A stretch of DNA of 64,000 nucleotides from Cenococcum geophilum (Eukaryota): the NCBI GenBank assembly GCA_050273025.1, contig CP158635.1, positions 3,224,001-3,288,000 on the forward strand, written 5' to 3'. Each line of letters begins with the position of its first letter. The stretch's first letter is position 1. Shown piece after piece: positions 15,051 to 63,869 of the stretch. Made by a program: the position numbers and the translations under genes. Under the pieces are notes generated by a model. It saw only the letters and a list, made by a program, of their open reading frames with translations. It searched no databases and was not told the origin of the DNA.

Positions 15051-18000
15051 ATTAGGAGCTCTTGCTGCACCCGGCCCAAAAAGACCAAAAACAACCAAAA
15101 GAACCCTGAAAAACACCCAGAGAATCCCCCTGAGATGCATGCATCGCAGGGGAGACACACGTCGAACGACGGTGGTTCGCACTCGCGCGCGCCTACCAGA
15201 ACCACGCCCAGCAATAGCCCTCTACAATAAGAACGGGCGAATACTATACCACAAAACGGAAAGACCTCTATTAAGAAGGCATCTAACAAAATATAAAGCC
15301 TATTAGATGCGTCTAGTATCTATAGTTATAGGGAAGCGACCGTTAGCTATAATGAACTAATATAGCTAGTAGAATAGCTCCGCTAATCTAGCGTACCTTA
15401 GGTGCCTCTTTAGCAAACCCTTAACCAAATCCTCTAACGGCTAAGTAAAATTAAAAATAAATAAAATCCCTCCCTACCGGCGAACCGTACCTAGGCCGCT
15501 GTAGCTGCGCCTCTATAGTATAGGGAGCCTACCCCCCTAAAGATAATATCTAAATATATAATTATAATATAACTAAATATAGAGAAAGTAGAGGGGCTTA
15601 GGGGATAATTAGAAATAGAAGTTTTTATAGAAATTTATAAAGAGGTTTATAACGCTATTATAGTCTAATACCTTAGGAGCGGAGATATTAAAATCACCCT
15701 AAGGGACTAATAGGTAAAGGAATAAGCTATAAGGGTAGGGGATAGGCTAGGAGAACGTATTAGTATAAAAGTACTCTATAAAGATTACCTAGTTAAAGTC
15801 CTAGTGGTTCCCTTAAGCCTTAGGGTAGAAAAGGGACGCCAGGCGAATAATACGGCAACTATATATAAGATAGTAAAATAAACGGAACGCCTTATACTAG
15901 GACTTAAGATCACCCAAATCTAATAGCTTTAATAGGAAAATGTAAACTAAGTATATAATAAGAATAATAAAAGAATATAAGGGTCGCTAGAGACTCGCTA
16001 GGGAGACACTGGTTAAACGTATAGCTCCCTTATTATTAGCATATATATAATAATAATAATAATTCATTGCTTAATGTCCGATTCGGATCCCTATTAGGCC
16101 CACGCGGACTACTCCTTATTTATATGTGGGGAGAAAACTCTATTTAAGAAAAATGAGAAAACCCCGTGATCCATCTCCCCGCCTTTTAGGACTCGCCTGC
16201 TTAGCGCCTATGAGTCGCCTATGGTGCTTTACTACCTTACTATTTGACCTCCTTAGGAACCACTGCTGCTGTAACAAGCCTACGGACGCGCTAGTATTAT
16301 AAACTATTACTCTACTACTGTAGAGTTACTAGGGGGCACCTGCTGTTTGCCCCCTTGCCTTTTATTACCATTTCCCTTGCAACCCGGAACTGATTTAGTA
16401 TATTTTAACTAATAAGCTACTGGGTGACCGCCTTAAGGCCTTTTTATGTTGAGAGCAGTGTATTATAGTTCTCTGTGCCAGCTGCTGAGAGTATTATTTC
16501 TTAATTGGTGCGTAGGGGGCATAGCAGTATTACGTGTTTTGGTGTTTGTCTTGGCTAGCCATATTTATATCTTGGGCTACCTACTGGGATACCCACCCAG
16601 TAAAGCCAATCTTTTAGTCCTATTATTCCTATTCTTAAGAGTATTGCTATTATGTTTTCTGCCTTTGTTAGGCCTTCTTAGAGCCCTTGGGTATTTACCC
16701 CCTATAGCGTTAACTATGCTATGGCTTGGGTTTGTCTTGCCTAAGTCAGCCTCTATACCTTTGACTTCTATTTACCTCTCTAGCGTTGGTCCAACCAGTA
16801 TTGTATTGCGGTAGATGGTTTCCTGGCATTCTTGTGTATTCTACTTTAGCTCCTTTCTCTGTCTTGCTGTTGTCTTTACTGACCTCTTGCGCGTCTCCCT
16901 TCCTCCTCTATATAGGCCTGGGCCCTAAAGCGGCACCATTTTTCTTCTGCTTTCTTTACCTGATTAGTATATATATACTAGGAATGCAAAAACTTCTTAT
17001 CTAAAAAGGTATTATTATAAATAGCCTTATATATAACGCAAGGCTCTATAACTATAAACTTCGCCTAAAATAATGCTACTGCTATATATAATAGGGACAC
17101 ACCCAATCTATATGCGTAGTATAGGTGTGCTACGGCCACTATATAGGCCCCTATAATATAAGAAACTGCTTAAATTAAAACTAAATAAAATACGTAAACT
17201 GCCACTAAAGCATATATAAGGCGTGGGAGAGAGGAGACTGTATTAAATATAGGAAACGGAAGGTAAGGGCTTAACAGCTATAGGAATAACTGCACGCTAG
17301 GTTATATAAATAGAAACAACAGGCGATAAGCTAGGGGGGCGTAGGTGCCTTTTTAGCATTTCCTACCTTTAATACCGGGGGGCTAGGCCAGCCATCCTAA
17401 GCCTTAACGGGCTAAAAGCGTTGCCGCGCGATATTACTAGACTATATAGGGATATAAGGGTTATAGGGGACATAAGGGAGAGGATGCCCTATAGGAAGAC
17501 TATTATGGACAGCTATAGTAAGCTTAAGACCAGGATAATTAAGAATTAGACTTAATACGGTAAATATAATATTTATAGCCAACTCTTAAAGGGTATATAG
17601 CTAACTAGTAAGAATAGGGGAGGAACCGGAGATAATAATAGATTTAGATATAGAAGCGCTACTAGGAATATAAGATACGGGAATAAAAAGCTCTATATAA
17701 AATAAGTAGTAACTAGGATATAGATATAAGAGACAGAAGCTCTAAATATCCTAGAGAAAGTAGAAATAGAGGAAGTAAGGAATAAAGGAGAGGCGAAGGA
17801 CCCTCGCTAGGGGTCCGCCACCTATCCATTATATAGTATAACTGCGGTAATATAAACCACCGTCTTACAAGGCCCTTGCTAGACAGCTTAGACCTAGAGA
17901 AATACTACATCCTTACTATATAAGAGCCGTATTATAATACCTACATACAATTAATATACTGCCCCTAAGGATTCTAGCTCCTATATAAACTAAAAGCAGC

Positions 18001-21000
18001 TATATACGTATACTTTATAATTAGCAAGGCTATCAGCCTATCCTTATAGTTATGGCAGGCAGTTAACCTAGATATTACAGTTATAATAATCTAGATATAT
18101 AGGGGACCGGTTTAGATTATTAATGTATATAACCCTAGGGTTAAAGGGGTCCTATAAATAGAGAACATTATATTAGTAATAAGCTTACTAGAAACCGAAG
18201 ATATAGAGTCTATCCTATTAGGAGATATAAACCTCTACCACCTATAGTGGGGGGGTATCTATATTGCTGCCGAACAATAGGTAGAGTGCCTACTAAAAGC
18301 TATAGACACCTAGGGCCTTAAGCTAGCCACCCCCCTAGGAGCAATTACATGGCAATGAGGTACCGCTAGAAGTATAATTAACCTTATATTTATGGACGAA
18401 GGCCTATACTAGAGACTTAAAAGGTATAACCCTAAAAAAGAATAGGCACTCGCTTTAGACTATATCCCCATCCAAATACAGCTAGATCTAGATATTAAGG
18501 CATAATTAAATAGCAAAAGATATGTAATAAGAAAGCTTAAGACAGACAGCTTCCTTAATATAGTTAAATAACAACTTTAAGACCTAGAAGAAATCCACCC
18601 AATACCAAATAAGCGAGGCTTAGTAGCTACCCCTAAGGAAATCGACTAAAGACTAGAAAGGATCCAGGCAGCAATTAAAAATGGGTTAGAAGAGCACTGC
18701 CCAGTCTTAAAAGCGGGCCCCTATGCGCGACACGCATGGTCCGTATAATGCGCGGTTCTTATTACTAGCTAATAACGAGCAAGAAGAAAATATATAAGTA
18801 GCTATAATCCTAAAGATAAGAGACATTATAAAGACATAAGAAACTAGCTAAAGAATACCCTAAAAAAAGAAGTAAGGAATAGCTGGAGACGGTTTATAAA
18901 TAAGTATACTACTAACCTGAGCCTCCCCTATAATAAAGGTCTTTAGAGGATAGCAAAATAGGCAAAAAAAAAAGGCAGGACGTCCAGTAGAAGACCTATA
19001 CCTTCCGCCCCTACAAAGACTAGGTAAATTACTGGCTATAAGCGACAATAATAAGAAGGCAAAAATCCTTATAGAAAGATTTTTCCCCTAACCAGCTTTA
19101 ATAGACCTTAGCAATATTACAGGCAAAGCACTAGTGACTTACCTAAGGGTTAATAGTGATATAACAACCGAAGAAATAGCCAGAACTATTAGCCGCCTTT
19201 TAAATAACATAGTACTAGGACTAGATGGGATCCTAAATAAAGCCCTAAAGACCTGCGGACTACTAATAGCACCTTAGCTTGCGGATATAGCTAAAGTATA
19301 CTTTATAATAGGCTACTACCTAAGACTTAGAAGAGCTATAACAACGTTTATCCTACGTAAAGAAGGCAAAGTAGACTACTTATTTCTAGGGAGCTACCGC
19401 CCTATTACCTTAGAGAATACCCTTAACAAGATCTTAGAAAGGGTAATAGCGGACCATATAGCAGATATAGTAGAGGAATACGCCCTACTACTACAAAGCC
19501 AAATAGGGGCAAGAAAGAACCGCTTAACACTATCAGCACTTACGCTACTCACTACTACTATTAAATTAGTATAGGCGATGCGAAGGGACTTTATAGTATT
19601 AATACTTAGCCTAGATATTAGTGGCGCCTATAACAATATACCCCATAAGCGTCTCCTATACATCCTTAGAGTAAAAGGCTTCCTAGAATAGATTATACAA
19701 TTTATTTAAGGGTTTACAGGCCAAAAAGAAACATTATTAGTCTTTAGCGGATACTAAAGCCCCCCTATCGCAGTTACAACAGGAATACTATAAGGATCAC
19801 CCCTCTCGCCTATACTTTTCCTTTTCTTTATAAGCAACCTACTTAACTCCTTTAAGGAAGGGGCAACCTAGGGGATAGGCTTCGTTAATAACATAAACCT
19901 AATTATATATAGGCTAATAGCCGTAGAGAATTACAAAATGCTAAAGAAAGCTTATAATACCTATATAGAATGGGCAAGACAATATAGAGTCTAATTCTTA
20001 CTAGAGAAGTACTAGCTAATCCATTTTATAAGAAAACGCAACTAATCTATAGATCTTTAGCACATAATTCACATCTAAGGCTTTAGGGGTCAGCCAGTTT
20101 AGGGCCTAAGAGTATTAGGAGTATAGGTAGACAGTAAGCTCCGGTAGAGCGCATATACGGCCTAAGCGGCCCGTAAGGGCTAAGCACAGTATATCGCATT
20201 ATCTAGGATCGTTAATTCTACATAGGGCCTATGCTTTTAGAGGTTACGCCTACTATATATAGCAGTTGTCCGGCTAACCATAACGTATAGGTCCAGTATT
20301 TAGGCCATTAGAGAATCTAAGAAAGGCCCCCCTAAATTGCTCCTTAAACCACTCTAAAAGGTCTAAACAGCCTACCTCTAGAGTATAATAGGCGGATATA
20401 AGCGAACGGCTACAGCACTACTTGAGAAGGAAGCTAATATTCCCCCCCTACAACTATATATTAAAGCCGCTGTAATATAAAGGGCGCAAAAGGAACGCAA
20501 CTCTAATGTTATAAAGTATATTAAGATACGCCTAAATAAACTATAGAGGGACTCTAGGGCGCCTTATAGGAGAACAAACCAATAACCCTAAAGTAGGGAA
20601 GATATATTAGAGAAATAGGTAAAGAAAGCAGAAGAAGAATGGTACTGCTTTAGGGCCTAGGCCTATATAGAGGAGGAAGGGAAACGCGTAAGAGGCTAGT
20701 AAGGACAACAGTAAGAGAGAGAAAAAAGCTAAAGTAAAGCATAAAAGAACGCCGGGAAACCAACTACCGCAATACAATACTGGCTAAACCAACGCTAGAG
20801 AGGCGTATAGAAGTTAAAGGTACAAAGGTTAACTAAGGTAAGAAGAACCTAAGCCGTAGCATAGTTAACGCTATAGGGGGTAAATACTCTAGGGCTCTAA
20901 GAAGGCCTAATAAAGGCAGAAAATATAATAGTAATACTCTTAAGAACAGGAGTAATAGGACTAAAAGACTGGCTCTACTAGGTAGGTGTCCTAGTAGGTA

Positions 21001-21533
21001 GCCTAAGATGCAAATATAGCTAGCCAAGATAGACACTAAAGCACGTAATACTACTATACCCCTTATATACTAACCAAGAAGTAATACTCTTAGTAGTTAG
21101 CATAAAGAACTATAAGATACTGCTCTTAATATAAAAAGGCCTTAAGGCGGTTACCTAGTGGCTTATTAGCTAAAATATACTAAACCAGTTCCGGGTTATA
21201 AAGGAAATAGTAATAGAAGGTAGGGGGGCAAGTAACGGGTGCCCCCTAATAACTCTATAGCAGTAGAGTAAAGTTTACAATACTAGCGCGTCCGTAGGCT
21301 TGTTACGGCAGCAGTGGTTCCTAAGAAGGTTAAAAAGTAAGGTAGTAGGAGCACTATAGGTGACTCGTAGGCGCCTCGCAGGCGCCCTGTAGGCGAGTTC
21401 CAAAAGGCGGGGAGATAGATTACGGGGTTTTCTTAAATAGAGTTTTCTCCCCACATGTATATAAGGAGTAGTCCGCGTAGGCCCAATAGGGATCTAAATC
21501 GGACGTTAAGCAATGAATTATTATTATTATTAT
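15051..21533 (+). mobile_element. Near full-length Tad1-like LINE copy B: ORF1 gag-like with CCHC knuckles (~15135-17800), ORF2 AP endonuclease + RT + C-terminal zinc knuckle (~17830-21215), (TAT)n tail
   Basis: De-RIPped motifs QYNC/ILAIQEP, LGDMNLHHP.WGG, GPDGIPN, SYRPITLENTL.KILE, SLDISGAYDN, GIPQGSPLSPILF, GFVDD, LRTGVIGL..WL...C.CG..RQT.KHVIL.CP. A 14-bp TSD tatatttttctttt lies at 15037-15050 and 21534-21547. Confidence 0.9.
16050..16962 (-). mobile_element. 5'-truncated LINE copy C (same family) inserted into ORF1 of LINE B
   Basis: Reverse complement of the last ~0.9 kb of LINE B including the tail. ~15-bp TSD attag(c/t)atatatata at 16035-16049 and 16963-16977. The empty site is visible in LINE A near 25700. 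Confidence 0.9.
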
Positions 21534-26239: not shown

Positions 26240-26540
26240 GTAAAGAATATATATTAAAGAGTAAAAAATAAATATTAACTATAAATGGGATAGGGTTAAG
26301 CGATAGGGTTTCTTATACTATTTTTACCATTTTTTAATTACTTAGTTATTATTAGTAACTTAGTACTTTACTAGGGAGCTATAAATACCTAATCTAAGAG
26401 TTTATAAACTATTAGAATATAACTGCTAGTATATATTAAGCTACCTATAAAGGATTTAGATATATAGAACTATAGCGCTATTAGTTAGAGGCTATATATA
26501 TAATATAATATAATAGGTATATATATTTTAAAAAAAAATA
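26240..26540 (+). mobile_element. 3' end fragment with A-rich tail of the RNase H-bearing LINE family (family of LINE D)
   Basis: Colinear with 36770-37050 (..tttataaactattag..gtatatattaag..ctatagcgctat..tagaggctatatata..poly A). Confidence 0.65.
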
Positions 26541-26561
26541 CACGTTATTACTTATATATTA

Positions 26562-27580
26562 GTAGTAGTTCTTTAATTAACGTCTGATACGGATCCTATC
26601 TAGGCCTACGCAGACTACTCCGTTATAGGGGGAAAACTTGTGTATTTATAGGAAGAAAACCCTGCAGTTAGGTTGGGGGAGGAAAAACCCTATAAGCTAC
26701 CTCAGTAGGATGAAAAACCCCGATTTGCTATATCCGTCCGTAGCGGCGGCCCTGCGGGCCTACGGCTACGTTCTGTCTCCTTGGATGTTTTGAACTCCTT
26801 GGGTACTACTGCTTCCCTCTCCAGCTTATCCTAAGCTGGGGTTCACTACGTCCCAGCTAGGCCTTGCCGATCAATTGCCGTGTATTGTTGTTGTCGTTTC
26901 CCATATTATTGACCGTCCCCTGTGTGCTATCTCTTACTAACCATTGCTATATACGCTATGCCTCCCCCCCCCTAGGGCCTATTGAAGGCGTAAGGGGGAT
27001 TTATCCATAAACTACCACTACACTATACTATAAGGCGAGCGGGACGTGTATGCCTGGGTATCTTTTATGCCTAGGCCCCAGTCACTAGGCCCTCGCCAAG
27101 GGTCACCACTCCTTAAGAGGAGACAGGAAAACCGTACGGTGTCGTCTAGGCTGCTAGGTTTTTCTTAGTATTTAATAGTTAATGGCGAGTGACCGTATGC
27201 TCCGCGGGCGATCGCCCTAAGGGTTAGGAGGGGCCGTATATTTGCTCGTTCGTTCGTTTGTTTATCCGCGTTCGTTTATTAATGTGAGGTCGTTAATACT
27301 TTCAATTGGGGGTTGGGGGACGTTAAATTCTATATGTATCCGCGAGGATTATATAGGGTTGGAATAGGAGAACAGTGTAGCTAAATTGTAGAGGGCCAAC
27401 AGTAGTGGTTTTCGAGATCTCACTATCTGAAAATTTTTCACCACCGCCTAGAACGCTCACAACCACCACCAGGTCCTATCCGCAGCTGTGTGACGTCTCT
27501 GCGTTGGCTCTACTGAGTCCGAAGACTAGTAGGTTCGTAGGCCTCACCACGTATAGGTGCAGAGTCTGATTTCGAGGACC
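26562..27580 (-). mobile_element. Non-autonomous SINE-like retroposon with a 5' HDV-like ribozyme and a LINE-derived 3' tail
   Basis: 13-bp TSD tacttatatatta at 26549-26561 and 27581-27593; no ORF. The 3' end (ggagtagtctgcgtaggcctagataggatccgtatcagacgttaa + (CTA)n) matches the LINE B 3' end (ggagtagtccgcgtaggcccaatagggatctaaatcggacgttaa + (TTA)n). Confidence 0.85.
27497..27580 (-). ncRNA. HDV-like self-cleaving ribozyme (predicted double pseudoknot)
   Basis: P1 GGUCCUC/GAGGCCU (G1-U wobble, one mismatch); P2 CUCUGC/GCAGAG; P3 ACC/GGU; L3 UAUACGU; P4 CUACU-AGUC(UUCG)GACU-C-AGUAG; J4/2 AGCCAAC with a candidate catalytic C at 27507. G1 coincides with the element's 5' end next to the TSD. Confidence 0.8.
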
Positions 27581-27593
27581 TACTTATATATTA

Positions 27594-28192
27594 CTATATA
27601 CCTCTCTCCTATCTATAAGGCTTATTAAAGGTATAATAGTGTTTACTTCTAACTAGCTTTGTAATACTAAGAGGTAGGTAGGATATATATATACTAGGGA
27701 TCTTTTATACCTAAGCCCTAGTTACTAAGCTCTTTTTAGGGTAACTAGTTATAGAAAGAAGATAGGTAAACTATAGGGTTATAATTTAAGCTAATAGGTA
27801 GAATATAGTATAGACGGTAATTAACTATAAGCTCTATAGGCGATTGCCTTAAGGATTAGAAAGGGGTATATAGTTAATTTATTTAATAGTTCGTCTATTA
27901 ATATAAGGGGTTATTAATACTTTTTATTAGAGATTAGAATCTATATTATATCTATAAGGATTATATAGGTACCTAAAATAGAAGTATATAGTAGCTATTA
28001 TTTTATAAAGGGGTATTAGTAGGAGTCGTTTTTAAGATCTTACTATCCTATATAAAAACTTTTTACTACTACCTATAATGCTTTAATAACTACTAGGTTA
28101 TACTTATACGCTATATAATATCTCTATATTAACTCTACTAAGCCTAAACTTTAAAGACTATAGGTTTATAGCTATTACTATATATAGATATA
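27594..28192 (-). mobile_element. Older, more heavily RIP-mutated partial copy of the same ribozyme-headed retroposon
   Basis: Colinear with 26950-27560, e.g. gcgattgccttaaggattag vs gcgatcgccctaagggttag, tttaagatcttactatc vs ttcgagatctcactatc, tctctatattaactctacta vs tctctgcgttggctctactg. Confidence 0.75.
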
Positions 28193-28969
28193 GTAAAGAT
28201 ATAAAGATATTAAAAATAAAGGATAAAAGTATAATTATTAGTAACCTAGTTAATTAAGGTATAAGTATAGCAAGGAGGATATATATAAGCCTATATAATT
28301 AGATTATCTATTAGTAAGGATTTAAAGTTAGAAAAAGGAAAGAAGAATAGTAATACTATTTAAAGTAGGGGTTTTATATTGTCTTTAGTTATATAAAAAT
28401 TATATAACCTCTATATCTACTATAACTATAACTAACTACTATTTCCTACTAGTACCTTAATATTACACTCCCTTAAAAAAAGCCTACCCTTAAGCTTTAT
28501 ATATCTGTATTATACCTATTAAGCGTTCTTATCTTTATATTCTATAGGTAATCTATTATTCTTACTATCCTAGTATTTTATCTACTTATCTAGGTACTTT
28601 AACTATCTAAGTTTATTAGGGTAATAGTTATATAACTTTTAGAGCTTATAGGGACTATCTCTAAAGTTCTATATAAAGCACTAAGTAGGGTTTAAGTTAT
28701 ATCCTTTCTAATCTACCGTAATATAATACTAGTTAAACTAATACTAGAGAAGTATATAGGAGTTAAAGGTATAGAGGCTAACTTAGAGAAGAGGAACCTA
28801 AGCTATAGTATAGTTAATACTTAAGGGCTCTAAAAAGGCCGAATAAAGGTAGAAAATATAATAGTAATACTCTTAAGAACAGGAATAATAGGACTAAAAG
28901 ATTGGCTTTACTAGGTAAGTATTTTAGTAGGTAGCTTAAGATATAAATATAGCTAGCGAAGACACTAAA

Positions 28970-41118: not shown

Positions 41119-44100
41119 TGTTACGGACGCTTTAAGTATAATATTACGATTACTTAGAGAAGAGACGGAAGAAGCTAGTTGGTTAATTTAGGTATGGTCC
41201 AAAATAGAGCCGATAGAACTATATAATGAGGAATGGTAACTAAAGTCACATAATATACTACGTGTTGAATAAGAGGAATAAGAGGAACTCACGTACCTCG
41301 CGTATAAGACGTATATTATGTATAAGAAAGGATTTTATAGGAGTACGGTTGTGTATTTAAGGACCCTTAGTCCCTACCTAGATAGTTCCTTCCTTATAGT
41401 AATTCTTAGAATACAATTAGAGTTAATCTATTAGGCAACCACTCTACTAGTTATTATTACGTTATTAACTTTTATACTTACATTTCTTATACACCTAGCC
41501 CAATAATAAGCCTACCGTAGTTCTTGCTACAAGGTTCCGTTATATAATTACTACCTAGTTATGGTATTAATATAAGAAGTTAAATAACATGCTACTAAAA
41601 GCAGCTACTATAACGCCATTAACGGCAGCGACTACTTTAAGGATAGAAGGTAATACTAGTATAGCAGATACTAACTTATAGCAACCTATGACGGTTAGAC
41701 AGCTATAGGAGGTAGTTAACTAGCTAATAGCTAATAATATAGTGTTAGAAGAAAGACTTAACGGAATAGGGGTAGCAAAGATTAAGCTATTATTAATTAA
41801 GAGATTTGCAGGAGAAAGGTTAAAGCTTAAAGGATTTCTTACGTAGATGCACTTTAAGGTCTTATAGAAGGGAGTAAAGTTACTTATACCTGTGGATCGG
41901 ATAGCCTATACAGGACTATTCTTATTAGGAAAAGCACTTAAGTAGTTTAAACCTTACCTTATAGAGATATAGGCGAATGGAATAACAACCACTAACTAAG
42001 ACGTGCGATTTATATTCTTAAGTTAGGAAGGATTTATAGAATAACTTACGCAGATATTTGGAGACCTAAAAAAAATAACTATAGCGGAAAGAAAACTCCA
42101 GAACCTTATATAACGAACTTTAGCAATTAAGTATATAACACAGTTCTAGACACTAGTAATAAGAGTAGAGTGGAATAATAGGGCGCTTATAGTATAGTAT
42201 AAACAGGGACTTAAGGCTAAAGTTTAGGATGTAATTATCCTAATAGAAGATATGGATACCCTAAGGGAACTAATAGATTAGGCGATTAAGATTAATAATT
42301 AGATCTACTAAAGGGAATAGGCTAAAAAGGGCTAGGATAGAGTTCTATAGTTATATAAGGCGCAAAGTACGCAATAATAAAAGCTAAGTTAGAAACTATG
42401 GTATAGCGCAAAGCTAATAGACCTAAGTGGTACTAAAAAAGCCTATAAAAAATAGAGTAAACTATAGAAACCTAGAGGACAGGGATTAAGTAATTAAAGG
42501 TTTAAGGAGCAAAGGCTAAATCAGGGATCTTAACAGCAGAAGACATTCAGGCGGACTCTATAGTAAGAGAAATGGTTTAAAGAAGGAGCTTACATAAATT
42601 ACGGAAAATAGGGTCATTATGTTAGAGACTGTAGAGGTAGGCAGAGTTACTATATAGTAAGGGGTATGAGACTAGTAGGCGACATATATGTATAAAGGGA
42701 TAATAATATGCTGCGAGGAACAAAAGAATATTTAATTAAAAGTTTTGCGTTTTATTATAATAACACATACTAAATTTATAAGGACGCTAAGTATGGCGCA
42801 AGCTATTAGCTATAAGAGCCAGCACCTATAGGATATAGAGGAACTAATAAACCAGTTTATAGATCGGATATTAAGGACAATAAATTTAACCTAAGTAAAA
42901 TATTCCATAATGATAAGGCAATAAGGGCCGCTTACTAGGAGTAAGTAGACCTTAAAGATGTTATACTAGAAGTAGAGGATAATTCTACTACAGAATAAGG
43001 AATATTAGTAGGGATTAAGACCCCACTAGATACGATGTCTATTACTTTGTAAAATGTAAGAGAAGTAGGATAATAAACCACTTCGGCACTTAATAAAGGC
43101 AAAAGGCTAAAGGCTTAAGATTCTTAAGATAAGATAAAAGACGACTAAGATTTTTAAGGCGAGATAAGGTATACCCAAGGACCTATAATGGATGAAAACC
43201 GATAGAGTAGGGCGGTAGCTTAGTTTAGAAATATACGAATAAGCTTGGGATAGAGTTTCCCGCAGGTATAAGACTCTTAAGATAAAATAAGTAAGATTTA
43301 AGAATCTCAAGACGAGATAAGAACACTATGGATACCTAGTTGGACTAAGGCGGAAACTAAGCTTAAGTTAGAAGCAAGCTTAGGATTAAAGAATCTAAGG
43401 GGCTAAGATTTCAGAATACGAATAAGGACACCTATAGGTAAAAGGCAAGGAGCTTCTTTATAGATTAGAGAATCTGTAATATAAATAGCAGCTAGACTAG
43501 GAGACAGATATATAGACCTAAAAAACTTACTAGGGGAATGCAGTATTTAGCCTAAAAATTAAAAGTTTAATACTAAGATTAAGAAGCAAGATAACTTTAA
43601 GAATTAGAGCGTAAGGCGCAAACCAAAAGAAACTATAGAAGAGTTTAGATAAAGAATTATCGCATAGTAAGAATAGAAACTAAATAAGAAATCTAGTATA
43701 TTGGGACGTATAAAGGATAGAGTACTAGTATAAAGAATTACTAATAGGCCGAGAGTAGGTATACTAAGAGCCAAGTGGCTTACTGAACTGGAAAATAAAG
43801 AGAATTTAGGGATTCTAACTAGGTTTAAAGAACGATATATAAAGGGCTATTATAATGCAGTAGTAAGAAGATACTTCCTTACGGATAGACCGTATATACT
43901 CCAGCAGCTATACTAAAAGTGGTATAGGTAAAGACATAATAATAAGTAGGAAGATTTCTACATATAGTTAGACAAAAAAGTTATCTAAAACTACCTAATT
44001 ATGGAAAAGGCTATAACATATATTAAAGGAGCCTTAATTATAACGTTAAAGGATCTAGAGGAACATTTAGGGGATTAAAGAAGCGAGAGACGCATCTTAG

Positions 44101-47100
44101 TACCTGCGAATAAAGTCGCAACGTTTAGATCAGTATAATAAAGGTTTAAACTTAGGGATGAAGACGAGCTAAGAGTTAACCCAAAGTACCTAGCATACTA
44201 TACGTTATTATAGATTGCGTATATGGACAATATATATAAAATGCATAAGAATCCAAAGGAAAAGAATTGGAAATACCCTATGAGAATATACTAGATAACG
44301 GACAAGCAATAGTACAGAAATGCTAAATATATATATAGATAGCATCCAGCAGAGGTCTAAGAGGAAGAAAGTTTAGTACTTTAACTAGGAAGATTTCTTA
44401 TAGAAGAATACTTAGACGGATAACAGTAGTGGGAATGCCCAAAAAATATATATTTATGGTATATTAAAGACAAAAAGCGAACTAGGTATTAGCTAAAAAG
44501 TAAGCTAAATGCACTAGGATTAAGCAGCTAATAGTTAGGAAAAGTGGAGGCCTATAGGACCAGAGGGAGCCAATAGTAGAGCCTTAGACCCTTAAAGGAA
44601 TTTAAGGACAACACCTAAACTTATAAATTAATTGGCAAGATTAGCAGTTTAAAGCGCTAATAGATAGTAGAGTAACGCGAAACTATATCTTACTAGCAGC
44701 AGTTAAAAGAATAGGACTACCTTACAAACAAAGGGAGTAACCTTACCCATTAGTTACAATTTTAGGGGATCTAATAACCTATAGAAAAGGGATTATTAAT
44801 CTTAAAACAGGACCTATTTAGATAACTATTAAAGGAAGACTAATTAAGATGTTTTTTAATATCCTACTATTAGGACAGGACGAGGCAGTATTAGGTATAT
44901 CTTAGTTATAGGAATATAATCTAAGGATTAATTAGATTACAGGTTAGGTCGTTATTAGAGATACTTAATACTATAAGACGTAATAATAAGCTAAGTTGGT
45001 ATAGTACCAAGTAGGAGCAACCTATAAAGAAATAAAAAAGGGACTAAGTTATATACTAAAGAGATACCATAAGTATAGCAAAAAACTATAGTTACCGGAA
45101 AGTAAAAAGCTATTAGAATATATAGTATGGGACTATAAAATAGAGTTAGAACCAGGAATAAGTCTAAAGTTCTTTCCAATCTATAAGCTTACTAAAGAAG
45201 AAGGTAGAGCATTAAAAGAGTTTATCTAGGAAAATCTATAAAAAGGATATATTAGACCATCGCAGTTATTAGCAGGTTATTCAGTACTATTCATACTAAA
45301 GAAAAATAGCAAACTAAGGCTATATATTAATTACAAATAGTTAAACAGTATTACTAGGAAGAATAGGTATTCTTTACCCTTAATTAGCGAAATCTAAAAT
45401 AGGATAGGCAATGCGCAAATCTTTATAAAAATAGATCTAAGATAGGCGTACCATCAGATTAGGATTAAGGAAGGCGACGAATAGAAGGCAGCCTTTAGGT
45501 CAAAGGAAGGACTATATAAGCCATTAGTTATACAATTCAGGCTTATAAACGCACTAGCAACGTTCTAGAAGCGTATTAACAATATATTAGGAGAACACTT
45601 AGATGAATTTATTATGGTATATCTTAATAATATTATTATCTACTTAATAACTAAGGAGGAACACAGAGAACACGTCAAATAGGTCTTAAAGAGACTATAA
45701 AAAGAACAGATGCCAGTAGCAATTAAGAAATGCGAGTTCTTTACCAGGAAGACCAATTTCGTTAGATTTATTATTAAACTAGGCTAATTTAGCATAGATC
45801 TAAAGAAGATCGAAGCTATAGTAAATTAGCAGGAACTAGAGAACATTATATAGTTAAGATTATTCCTAGGATTTTACAATTACTGCAGAAGGTTTATAGC
45901 GTAGTAGTTAAAGGACATTAAACCATTTACGCGGTTAATAAAGAAAGAAGAACTATAGGTATAGGGAGAGGAGCAAAGAGAACTCTTTAAGAGAGTTAAA
46001 GAGTTGTTTACCTAAGAGCCAGTTCTTAAGATCTATTAACTAGGACTAGAGACGGTTATAGAAACAAATATATTAGACTATACACTAGGAGCATACTTTA
46101 TATAAAGGCATTAAAATAGATAGCATCTAGTAGCATACTATAGTCGGAAGATAACACTACTAGAGTTAAACTATGACATTTACAACAAGGAGTTATTAGG
46201 TATAGTTATAGTATTAAAGGAATAGAGAGCATTCTTATAAGGTATAGAAAAACTATTTATAATTAAAACGGATTATAAGAACCTAACAGGATTCCTAACA
46301 ATAAAGGAACTTAACTAAAGATAGGTTAGATAGGCAGAGATACTTATAGAATACTATTTCGAGATTTAGTATACCAAAGGTACAGATAATATAAGGGCAG
46401 ATGCTCTAAGCCGCAAAGCTAAACTACAAAATGAGGAAAAGCTATTAGGGGCTTTATTGCAAAAAGATACAGACGGATTAATTAGGTACAATTATCCAAA
46501 AATCGCAGCAACTTAAGAAGACGACGAACTAGAGAAAGTCTACGAGACACTAGAAAGCTTTTAGGCATAAAGAATTCTAAAAGCATAGCTAGAAGATCCA
46601 TAGATGGATATATACGAAAATTAAGAAGTAAAGTACATCCTAAAAAGCATAGCAGAGTAGTTTATAGAGGACTTCTATAAGGGGCTAACTTAAGGACATA
46701 ATAGAGCCATAGGCTTAGTGTTAAGACTCTAGGAGGAGTATATTATTAATAGAATCTAGAGGATAGCTAGAAGGGTTATTAAAGAGTATCTAAATTGCTA
46801 AAGAAATAAACTAATAAGACATAAGCTATATAGAGGGCTATAACCTATTAAAATACTAAAGAGACTATAGGAGGTTATATTATGGGACTTTATTATTAAG
46901 TTACCAAAATTAAAGGATCCTATTACCGGACAAGATTATAACGCGATCTTAATAATAGTAGATAAGCTTATAAAGTGGGGATACTTTATAGCATATACAG
47001 AAGAAATCTTAGCGGAGGATATCGCTAGAATCTACGTTAAAGAAGTATTTACAAGATATAGAGTACTAAGTAAGATTATATTAGATAGAGATTTAAGATT

Positions 47101-49071
47101 TATAGCAGCATTTTAGGAAGTGTTCTTAGCGGAGCAAGGAGTTTAAGTAGCAACTTCCACCGCATATTATCTATAGATAGACGGTTAAATAGAAAGACTA
47201 AACCAGACACTAGAACAATATCTAAGGCATTATATTAATCATACACAGAATAATTAGGTATCGCTATTACTAGTTATATAATTTGCATATAATACAACAC
47301 CCTAAAAAGGAATAGGCATATTACTATTTAAGGCAAACTATAGATATAAGCTAAGAATATCGTTATTACTACGGTAAGCGAAGAAAACAAGTAGTACAGC
47401 CAAAGAAAGAATAAAGGATTTAATAGATCTTTATGCAGACCTTATAGAGACAGCTAAGGTAGTACAATAGAGAATAAAAAAGTACTATAATGCTAGGAGA
47501 TCTAAGGGACCAGATCTTAAGGAGGGAGATAAAGTGTGGCTACTATATAAAAATTTCAAAAGTTAACGACTAAGTAAGAAATTAGACCACGTTAGACTAG
47601 GACCTTTTAAAATTATATAGAGGATTTCACCGGTTATATTTAAGTTAAACCTACCAGCCAAAATAAAGATTTACCCTATATAGTATATCGCAATGCTAGA
47701 GCCAGTATACGGAAATGTTAAGCCACTAGGCTATAAGGCAGACACATATAGAGGATAAGAAGAAGACAAATAGTAAGTTTTAAAGATCGTTAATTACAAG
47801 GATATTAACAACGAAATATGGTATAAGGTTAAGTAGATAGGCTATACTAAAACTACCTAGGAGCTATTAGAGAATTTAAAGAATACTATAAGAAAGGTAT
47901 AGGAGTATTAGAAGAGATTAGGTTAGGCAGTATTAATAAAAAAGGATTACTAAAGAATAAGTTACCTAAGGGGGACCCAAGAAGAACAGTTGCCGAACTA
48001 CTTAAATCTATTTCCTTCTCTATTAGAGGAGAATCCATTCTTTTATTACCTAGTTCCTGCAAGCCTTATTTTATAAGTTTCTACTTCTTAAAATAAACCT
48101 TCTTATAAACCTTCTTAAGACGAAGCAGATAAGCAGACGCCACAATTTAAGCATTTAAGGCCTTCTATTCCGCGTTATAGGAACGTTCTAACTTAACAAG
48201 GGCTTATAACAGTTTACCATCTAGCCGCGTAGTAGTAGATTAAATATAAGACCCTAAGACAAATTAATTAGGGAACTAGACGACTATTAAGAGTAATAGG
48301 TCGCGTATACTTAGTATTAGAAGTAGAGCAAACGTTATAGGATAAATAAATATTCGCTTTAGTACACTTTAAGTAAGAGGACGGTTATTATAAAGATGGG
48401 TTTACTAACGCAATATAAACCAACCCCTCTTTTAAACAACGAGAGCATAGAGACAGCATAATCTTATTAAGAGATAATATTACAGCAATAGTGCGAGCAC
48501 GACATTAAGCGTGTAAAGAAGAAATTGCTTTAGGCATAATAAGTGATAATATTAACTAAATTAATTAAACGGATATTATACCTCTAGTAAACAACTTAGA
48601 GATATTTCAAATCTTTAAGGATAAAGATAAAAAGGAGGGAGATGGTATTACGGACGCTTTAAGTATAATATTATAACTACTTAGAGAAGAGATAGAAGAA
48701 GCTAGTTAGTTAATTTAGGCACGGTCCAGAATAGAGCTAATAGAACTATATAACGAGGAATAGTAACCAAAGTTATATAATATGCTATGTGTTAAACAAG
48801 AGGAACGAAAGGAACTTACATACCTCGCGTATAAGACGTACATCACGTATAAGAAAGGATTTCATAGGAGTACGGTTGTGTATTTAAGGACCCTTAGTCC
48901 CTACCTAGATAGTTCCTTCCTTATAGTGATTCTTAGAATACAATTAGAGTTAATCTGTTAGGCAACTACTCCACTAGTTGTTATTACGTTGTTGACTTTT
49001 GTACTTGCATTTCCTACACACCTAGCCCAATAACGAGCCTACCGTAGTTCTTACTATAAGGTTCCGTTACA
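41119..49071 (+). mobile_element. Full-length Ty3/gypsy chromovirus Y nested in gypsy X; LTRs 41119-41544 and 48646-49071 (426 bp); TSD CTATG
   Basis: Paired LTRs, TSD and PPT aaaaaggagggagatgg. Gag with a CCHC knuckle near 42590; PR ALIDS near 44655; RT YLDDIIIY near 45620; RNase H NYDIYDKELL; integrase WDFI.KLPKSKDP and STAYHPQTDGQ.ERLNQTLEQYLR; chromodomain near 47800. Confidence 0.93.
48000..48537 (-). pseudogene. RIP-degraded antisense ORF inside gypsy Y (Cys-rich zinc-cluster-like N-terminus plus coiled coil)
   Basis: ATG at 48537 (MPKAISS). De-RIPped reading CSRC.KEGLVC..LANPS...PSSC.EC.KAN....CDV, then LLRL.K......KQKL...GLQEL. Confidence 0.55.
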
Positions 49072-63683: not shown

Positions 63684-63869
63684 GTAAGTTTATTTAATAA
63701 GTTATTACTAGATATAAAGGTATTTCTAGGTTTAAGTAATTCTTATAGACGTTTAATTTTAGTATTAGCTACTATAAGCCTATCCTAAGGGTTTAAAATA
63801 GTAACTATTTTACAATTAGAGGTATTTAAAGATTCTATAGCTTCTTTATTAGCTACTATATTTCTTAAA

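Follow-up and report, generated by a model that had tools for sequence, protein, structure and literature searches.

Ribozymes resembling that of hepatitis delta virus (HDV) have been described at the 5' ends of the retroelements R2, RTE and baggins, which lack long terminal repeats (non-LTR elements; PMC6765202). This 2019 review places such ribozyme-bearing long and short interspersed nuclear elements (LINEs and SINEs) 'in metazoans', and it describes elements of the R2/RTE/baggins type as able to lack a promoter of their own and to be freed from co-transcripts (PMC6765202). Outside the animals, the LINE L1Tc and the non-autonomous NARTc of Trypanosoma cruzi carry the HDV-like ribozyme Pr77 in their first 77 nt, with cleavage at +1 (PMC3185411). 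In fungi, Li and Breaker (2017) reported 230 representatives of a variant HDV class in 26 species, in addition to 11 canonical ones found earlier; two representatives self-cleave in vitro, and the ribozymes are said to have 'widely variable gene associations' (PMC5640933). Nowhere does that paper use the word retrotransposon (PMC5640933). Here we describe a locus in a 64-kb stretch of Cenococcum geophilum DNA (GenBank assembly GCA_050273025.1, contig CP158635.1, positions 3,224,001 to 3,288,000; hereafter the window, in whose coordinates all positions are given), in which an earlier note had predicted an HDV-like ribozyme fold on the minus strand at 27497..27580. We found that these 84 nt are nt 1-84 of a full-length, non-coding and non-autonomous non-LTR retroposon of 1019 nt (26562..27580, minus strand), and we consider it quite probable, judging from sequence comparison, that they act as a self-cleaving, HDV-like ribozyme which processes the 5' end of a fungal retroposon dependent on a LINE.

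The predicted ribozyme and the 5' end of its family

Ribozyme nucleotides are numbered such that nt n corresponds to window coordinate 27581-n. The minus-strand sequence from 27580 to 27497 and every pairing listed in the earlier note were confirmed letter by letter in the window. In the predicted fold, P1 pairs 27580-27574 with 27545-27539 (nt 1-7 with 36-42), has G1·U42 at the cleavage site and contains a single U3·C40 mismatch; an alternative register of P1 with a bulged U3 is possible. J1/2 (27573-27565) is followed by a P2 of 6 bp (27564-27559 with 27502-27497; nt 17-22 with 79-84) and a P3 of 3 bp (27558-27556 with 27548-27546; nt 23-25 with 33-35), the latter enclosing the 7-nt L3 (27555-27549). 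P1.1 is assigned to 27554-27553 with 27538-27537, and P4 extends over 27532-27510 (nt 49-57 with 62-71), contains U65 as a bulge and is capped by a UUCG loop. J4/2 (27509-27503), for which the consensus of HDV-like ribozymes is C-N-R-A, contains C74-C-A-A, with the putative catalytic C74 at 27507. The parts thus follow one another in the HDV-like order P1, J1/2, P2, P3, L3, P3', P1', P1.1, P4, J4/2 and P2', as a nested double pseudoknot. The assignment of the fold rests on the sequence itself, on pair counts over 83 copies, on the invariance of C74 and on a weak alignment to the Rfam model RF02682.

Copies of the element were collected by scanning metagenome contigs with an 18-nt core pattern. 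Of the 107 loci recovered, 83 are ordinary copies with a 5' end, one (L040) is cut by the start of its contig, two (L053 and L071) are divergent relatives and 21 are unrelated chance matches, mostly GC-rich. For the 82 copies whose upstream flank extends over 30 nt or more, the fraction of the majority base is 0.29-0.59 at positions -30 to -1 and 0.90-1.00 at positions +1 to +21. This jump in conservation between -1 and +1 indicates that the family begins at G1, to the base. Full-length copies of approximately 1000-1020 nt were found at 42 loci, with 78-94% identity to the window copy and alignment to its positions 1-1019. Perfect direct repeats of 10-19 bp, mostly 13-16 bp, flank 40 of the 42. 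The upstream repeat abuts G1 in 39 of these copies and is separated from it by 1 nt in one, and the downstream repeat comes after a conserved terminal motif and a run of TAC repeats. As for the remaining two loci, a direct repeat was recognised by eye past a longer TAC run in L027, and none was found in L067. The window copy follows the same scheme, with a 13-bp target-site duplication whose upstream copy (27581..27593) has its last base directly before G1 and whose downstream copy (26549..26561) stands directly after the TAC tail.

The read data agree with these ends. The GC profile shows the element as an island of ~50% GC amid DNA of 20-30% GC that has been degraded by repeat-induced point mutation (RIP). 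Among the 24 public entries listed, 20 carry part of this island; among them are runs with the labels organism A, organism B, soil metagenome and fungus metatranscriptome. Reads of four runs were aligned to 26300-28300; depth is very high over 26568-27572 and collapses at both edges. In run X1, depth drops at the 5' edge from 32180 in bin 27506-27572 to 930 in the next bin, and at the 3' edge from 198884 in bin 26568-26634 to 4676 in the bin before. Most differences of the reads from the window are T>C and A>G, which means that G and C have been lost from the window copy.

G1 at 27580, which the earlier note had fixed from the fold alone, is therefore the exact 5' terminus of the family, as established by the boundary over 82 copies and by the duplications in 40 of 42. 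A conservation jump together with duplications abutting the first nucleotide is the signature of HDV-like ribozymes that trim the transcripts of non-LTR retroelements. The main rival explanation is an internal promoter or a 5'-end structure, by which G1 would be the transcription start, the resemblance to HDV-like ribozymes would be coincidental and no cleavage would occur. Many non-LTR elements define +1 by an internal promoter, and such a promoter would explain the sharp boundary, the duplications abutting G1 and the high conservation of the 5' end equally well. Against it stands that the fold had given the position of the boundary at a time when no copy had yet been seen, and that this prediction proved correct to the base. 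We regard the promoter explanation as improbable, though deserving of serious attention.

To compare the ribozyme module across copies, 82 loci and the window were aligned, omitting L093 for its 1-nt insertion and L053 for its divergence. C74, at 27507, which the earlier note had named as the catalytic base and which we retain as the putative one, is conserved as C in all 82 copies as well as in the window. Its neighbour nt 75 is variable (75 C, 7 T), and A76 and A77 are invariant. An invariant C at the place where J4/2 needs it, next to a variable base, again speaks against a promoter. The pair at the predicted cleavage site is G1·U42 in 79 copies and A-U in 3. In P1.1, U28-A43 is present in all 82 copies, and the second pair is G27-C44 in 63, G-U in 5 and A·C in 14; G27 is accordingly the majority state (68 of 82 copies), at a position where the search pattern permitted only A or G. 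Over 43 full-length copies, the majority fraction averages 0.962 in ribozyme columns outside the search pattern, 0.959 at positions 951-1000 and 0.903 in the rest. The ribozyme module is thus the best-conserved segment of the retroposon, and its 3' end is the second. One ribozyme sequence is common to 14 loci (e.g., L001:1480-1563), and L051 is an example of a subfamily whose P4 carries the UUCG loop.

In comparison with its nearest subfamily, the window copy of the ribozyme shows G-to-A changes at three sites (nt 14, 27 and 54), of which two lie in TpG, where RIP is expected to act on this strand. The change at nt 14 lies in J1/2, and that at nt 54 costs a pair of P4. The change at nt 27 removes the G-C pair of P1.1, which in the window is reduced to A43-U28 because nt 27 is A. 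The earlier note had put the damage down to a probable single RIP lesion and had predicted that reversion of plus-strand position 27554 from T to C would restore a G-C pair in P1.1. The lesion at nt 27 is real and the predicted C is the family consensus: besides the majority of copies, it is present in 75 of 77 reads of the RNA run X21 and accounts, by depth, for 2843 of 3100 in run X5, 3904 of 8616 in X6 and 3501 of 54759 in X1. The lesion is not single, however, since three sites are affected. The ribozyme of the window copy is probably weakened by these changes.

Weighing the fold against chance and against a promoter

Several results weigh against the ribozyme assignment and are taken together here. 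The fold on its own is weak evidence, no better than chance: its minimum free energy (MFE), calculated for nested pairs only, is -21.6 kcal/mol (z = -0.46), and 61 of 200 shuffled sequences fold as well. At gathering thresholds, Rfam gave no match across the whole window. The Rfam search proposed by the earlier note thus brought no support at threshold for any HDV-type family. The sole HDV-type match in E-value mode was RF02682, with 13.2 bits against a gathering threshold of 44 bits and E = 2 on 121 nt, obtained with models that cannot score pseudoknots. No HDV-type match at E ≤ 10 was found for L013, L008, L053 and L071, among which are two consensus-like copies. A loose structural descriptor of HDV ribozymes, written after the candidate had been seen, matched at two start sites in the window (27580 on the minus strand and 63730 on the plus strand) and at a mean of 0.65 sites (range 0-2) in 17 block-shuffled windows. 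The second match, at 63730-63793 on the plus strand, is AT-rich with no sign of conservation, and is for these reasons probably due to chance.

These figures also favour the view that the predicted ribozyme itself is a chance fold in a repeat, with no role: the descriptor finds 0.65 matches per shuffled window, a second, AT-rich one was found in the window, and the MFE is unremarkable. We give this view very little credence, since no other part of this multi-copy element is as well conserved and since the segment starts exactly at the terminus of the element. It is this family context, and not the fold itself, that makes the candidate non-random.

Further reservations concern the sample of copies and the pairing. 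Copies were ascertained by an exact match to the core, so the sample is biased towards well-kept ribozymes and young copies. When the flanks of the loci were searched for copies free of this bias, none of the 93 blast hits lacked the pattern. Over the 27 pairs of the fold, 93.9% of the alignment cells hold standard pairs, against 35-46% when the partners are slid by 1-3 columns (56 distinct rows); this contrast is partly built in, because the structure was derived from one of the aligned sequences. Pair 51-69 is G-C in 41 copies, A-U in 25, G-U in 9 and mismatched in 7, and pair 54-66 is G-C in 58, G-U in 13, A-U in 6 and mismatched in 5 (n = 82 for both). Changes on both sides are limited to these two P4 pairs and one cell of P2, among copies that are close paralogues. 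The covariation in P4 may reflect a single split into two subfamilies, and RIP by itself gives both G>A and C>T.

Position U3·C40 does not pair in 81 of the 82 copies, nor in the window, whereas P1 of canonical HDV-like ribozymes is continuous over ~7 bp. The earlier note had listed the mismatch among the possible causes of impairment. It is indeed present in the window, but its occurrence throughout the copies marks it as a fixed family feature and not as damage. Together with the failure in Rfam, the fixed mismatch weakens a strict membership of the HDV-like class. The promoter explanation gains from the same two results and from the chance rate of the descriptor, which leave room for a coincidental resemblance. 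It is countered by the two P4 pairs that change on both sides, and by the match of the core to a curated HDV-type model over its whole length: the RF02682 alignment, low as its score is, begins at 27580 and covers the full length of the model, and its P3/L3/P1' core is nearly identical.

The two divergent relatives bear on this point from both sides. In L053 (338-450, plus strand), P2, P3, L3, P1' and J4/2 are kept while the outer P4 is a different, longer hairpin, which is a further argument against a promoter. Despite the kept core, L053 and L071 carry one or two extra mismatches in P1. Because of these mismatches, and because both lie outside the element, they were rejected as independent evidence of covariation. 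L053, which has two P1 mismatches, lies in DNA of ordinary GC content opposite the 3' end of a gene, the product of which we take, from a motif recognised by eye, to resemble an AA9 lytic polysaccharide monooxygenase. L071 (1480-1600, plus strand) lies between two genes, likewise in DNA of ordinary GC content. Its core is kept, its P4 region is large and different, C17-G84 of P2 is replaced by U-A, position 3/40 is a U·G wobble and J4/2 reads C-G-A-A.

RNA reads of run X21, which comes from a related organism and carries the same label as the best DNA runs for the island, show a depth of 183.8 in bin 27506-27572 and of 3.75 in the next bin outward. The strand bias (1831 vs. 25 in bin 27372-27438) points to element-sense RNA, assuming the usual stranded library chemistry. 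Of these reads, 93% continue into unlike sequence. The list of X21 molecule ends has no peak at 27580. X21 therefore shows transcription of relatives, rather than a cleaved 5' end. At 27511, inside P4, 548 X21 reads depart from the window sequence (agreement 0.67). By eye, the departing stretch is still able to form a hairpin with a bulged U, which suggests an expressed subfamily with another P4.

Taking the evidence together, we hold a self-cleaving ribozyme to be the best explanation because the family terminus falls where the fold places the cleavage site, because no part of the element is more constrained than the module and because the putative catalytic C is fixed. Self-cleavage, the action of C74 as general acid and the identity of the LINE that supplies the enzyme are what we infer from these data.

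The retroposon, its likely LINE partner and the surrounding DNA

The minus-strand retroposon ends in a TAC-repeat tail (26562..26567), with the conserved 3' terminal motif (26562-26581) just before it. The consensus of the family has no convincing open reading frame (ORF). No tRNA, 5S or 7SL family was found at gathering score anywhere in the window; as the head of the element is the predicted ribozyme fold and none of these RNAs matches, the retroposon is not a classical SINE transcribed by RNA polymerase III. The target-site duplications of the family often begin with TA, and majority fractions reach 0.50-0.59 at positions -15 to -12 upstream of G1. The TA start hints at a preferred nick site able to pair with the TAC tail.

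The terminal motif occurs twice more in the window, at 21505-21524 (plus strand) and 16056-16075 (minus strand), in each case at the 3' end of a LINE fragment. The first of these 3' ends (21270..21524, plus strand) belongs to a RIP-degraded, 5'-truncated LINE fragment with a reverse-transcriptase domain at 19359..20121 on the plus strand (Pfam RVT_1, E = 5.8e-18, 65.8 bits, with stops read as X), and aligns to the 3' end of the retroposon with a score of 526 against 361 ± 20 for shuffled sequences. The second (16056..16310, minus strand) belongs to a second, inverted and likewise RIP-degraded LINE fragment with the same terminal motif, and scores 489 against 373 ± 19. The match of the LINE fragments to the 3' end of the retroposon is clear over the last ~55 nt and weaker over ~260 nt. 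Pfam searches with six read-throughs of 4000 residues over 20-32 kb returned no family; RVT_1 was obtained with a shorter stretch. Since its 3' end is common to the LINE fragments, the retroposon is non-autonomous and borrows the machinery of a LINE, and the LINE family represented at 19359..20121 is likely to be its autonomous partner. The marks of a LINE-dependent retroposon, namely target-site duplications, a simple-repeat tail, the lack of an ORF and a 3' end in common with a LINE, are all found here. There is good support for the element as such, for its ends and for its dependence on a LINE.

Three loci, L009, L057 and L074, were considered as possible LINE 5' ends bearing the ribozyme and were rejected, as they proved to be copies of the retroposon that are interrupted by unrelated insertions or run off their contigs. 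A 5' end of the partner LINE was looked for and not found. The interruptions at L009:1669-2460 and in L057 (after element position 476) are other insertions in the retroposon, that in L009 with long inverted repeats.

From these features a mode of propagation can be proposed. The intact module would most likely fold into an HDV-type double pseudoknot and, during transcription of the retroposon, would cleave the phosphodiester just 5' of G1. Transcription could start by read-through from upstream DNA or from the element's own region, and cleavage would in either case free an RNA that begins precisely at G1. The LINE reverse transcriptase would then recognise the common 3' end and the TAC tail of this RNA and copy it into a nicked target. 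The expected outcome is a full-length insertion starting at G1 and flanked by duplications of 10-19 bp.

An older, partial and heavily RIP-mutated copy, designated B, lies directly upstream of the intact copy on the minus strand (27573..28193) and corresponds to element positions ~19-650. In a RIP-aware alignment it scores 737 against the retroposon, compared to 306 ± 18 for shuffled sequences. A degenerate version of the core pattern matches its ribozyme core (28190-28165) with two mismatches. Copy B has accumulated 66 G>A and 66 C>T changes, as opposed to 8 and 6 changes in the reverse direction. Such one-directional transitions are the signature of RIP, indicating that copy B is old and RIP-degraded and that the island is younger. 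No further copies of the retroposon besides B were found within the window. Copy B is truncated at its 3' side, where it adjoins the young copy, and the rest of B was not found downstream. An insertion of the intact copy into B was considered but not supported, as the downstream flank scores 171 against 147.5 ± 11.6 (maximum 172) for shuffled sequences. The window as a whole is a mosaic of DNA of ~50% GC and of 20-35% GC. A 6-kb block at 42001-48000 shows a GC skew of 0.20-0.27 and an AT skew of 0.22-0.24, and may be a RIP-degraded element in one orientation.

Meaning and comparison with known systems

Should the module cleave, fungi would join animals and trypanosomatids as hosts of non-LTR retroelements whose 5' ends are defined by ribozymes, and part of the fungal HDV-class ribozymes, so far described only as scattered motifs, would gain a biological role. 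More tentatively, and with considerable doubt on our part, HDV-type ribozymes of filamentous fungi might, at least in this lineage, serve as 5' processing modules of LINE-dependent non-coding retroposons that continue to be transcribed and whose recent insertions lie in RIP-degraded DNA. A role in retroposons would, if true, explain the 'widely variable gene associations' of the fungal ribozymes (PMC5640933). On this reading, the family would also show that efficient cleavage tolerates a fixed U·C mismatch inside P1. The RIP-mutated ribozymes that occur naturally in the family (e.g., with G27A in P1.1, lost pairs in P4 or C75U) also form a series in which to follow how a genome defence disables catalytic RNA. 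For the purposes of annotation, a repeat family is defined by its exact ends, its duplications and the common LINE tail, and this family accounts for an island of ~50% GC in AT-rich, RIP-degraded DNA.

In our literature search, from which most subscription journals were absent, no paper on a fungal retroposon capped by an HDV-like ribozyme was found. Among fungal elements, Mg-SINE of Magnaporthe and its LINE partner MGL provide the parallel of a non-autonomous retroposon with a LINE-mimicking 3' end and direct repeats of 10-20 bp, and differ in that no ribozyme is reported for Mg-SINE (PMC2104539). Among ribozyme models, RF02682, from Faecalibacterium prausnitzii, resembles the present fold in its end-to-end alignment from 27580 and its nearly identical P3/L3/P3'/P1' core. 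It differs in the alignment score of 13.2 against the required 44 bits, in its bacterial host, in a shorter P4 and in an unrelated context.

The fungal class of Li and Breaker shares with the present family an HDV-class fold, an occurrence in filamentous ascomycetes and many copies per genome (PMC5640933). Typically, its members pair C with G at the cleavage site, have an E-loop in place of part of P4 and insert one additional nucleotide between P2 and P3 (PMC5640933). As judged by inspection of the alignment, the present family has G·U at that site and a regular P4 hairpin of 9 bp with one bulge, while C22 could correspond to the additional nucleotide. In view of its G·U pair and plain P4, the present fold is nearer to the canonical form than to the variant class.

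The arrangement of R2, RTE and baggins is similar to that proposed here, as the ribozyme lies almost wholly downstream of the cleavage site and both the RNA and the full-length DNA copies begin at nt 1 (PMC6765202). Those elements are autonomous and protein-coding, and R2 is specific for rDNA, whereas the present element is a non-coding retroposon of 1 kb, in a RIP-active fungus, with AT-rich targets that start with TA. With L1Tc and NARTc the comparison is different. In T. cruzi the LINE and the dependent element share the ribozyme, and here the 3' end is what is shown to be common with the LINE. The present family resembles the trypanosomatid pair in that a non-autonomous element carries the ribozyme, and in a P3 of 3 bp and a P1.1 of only 1-2 bp (PMC3185411).
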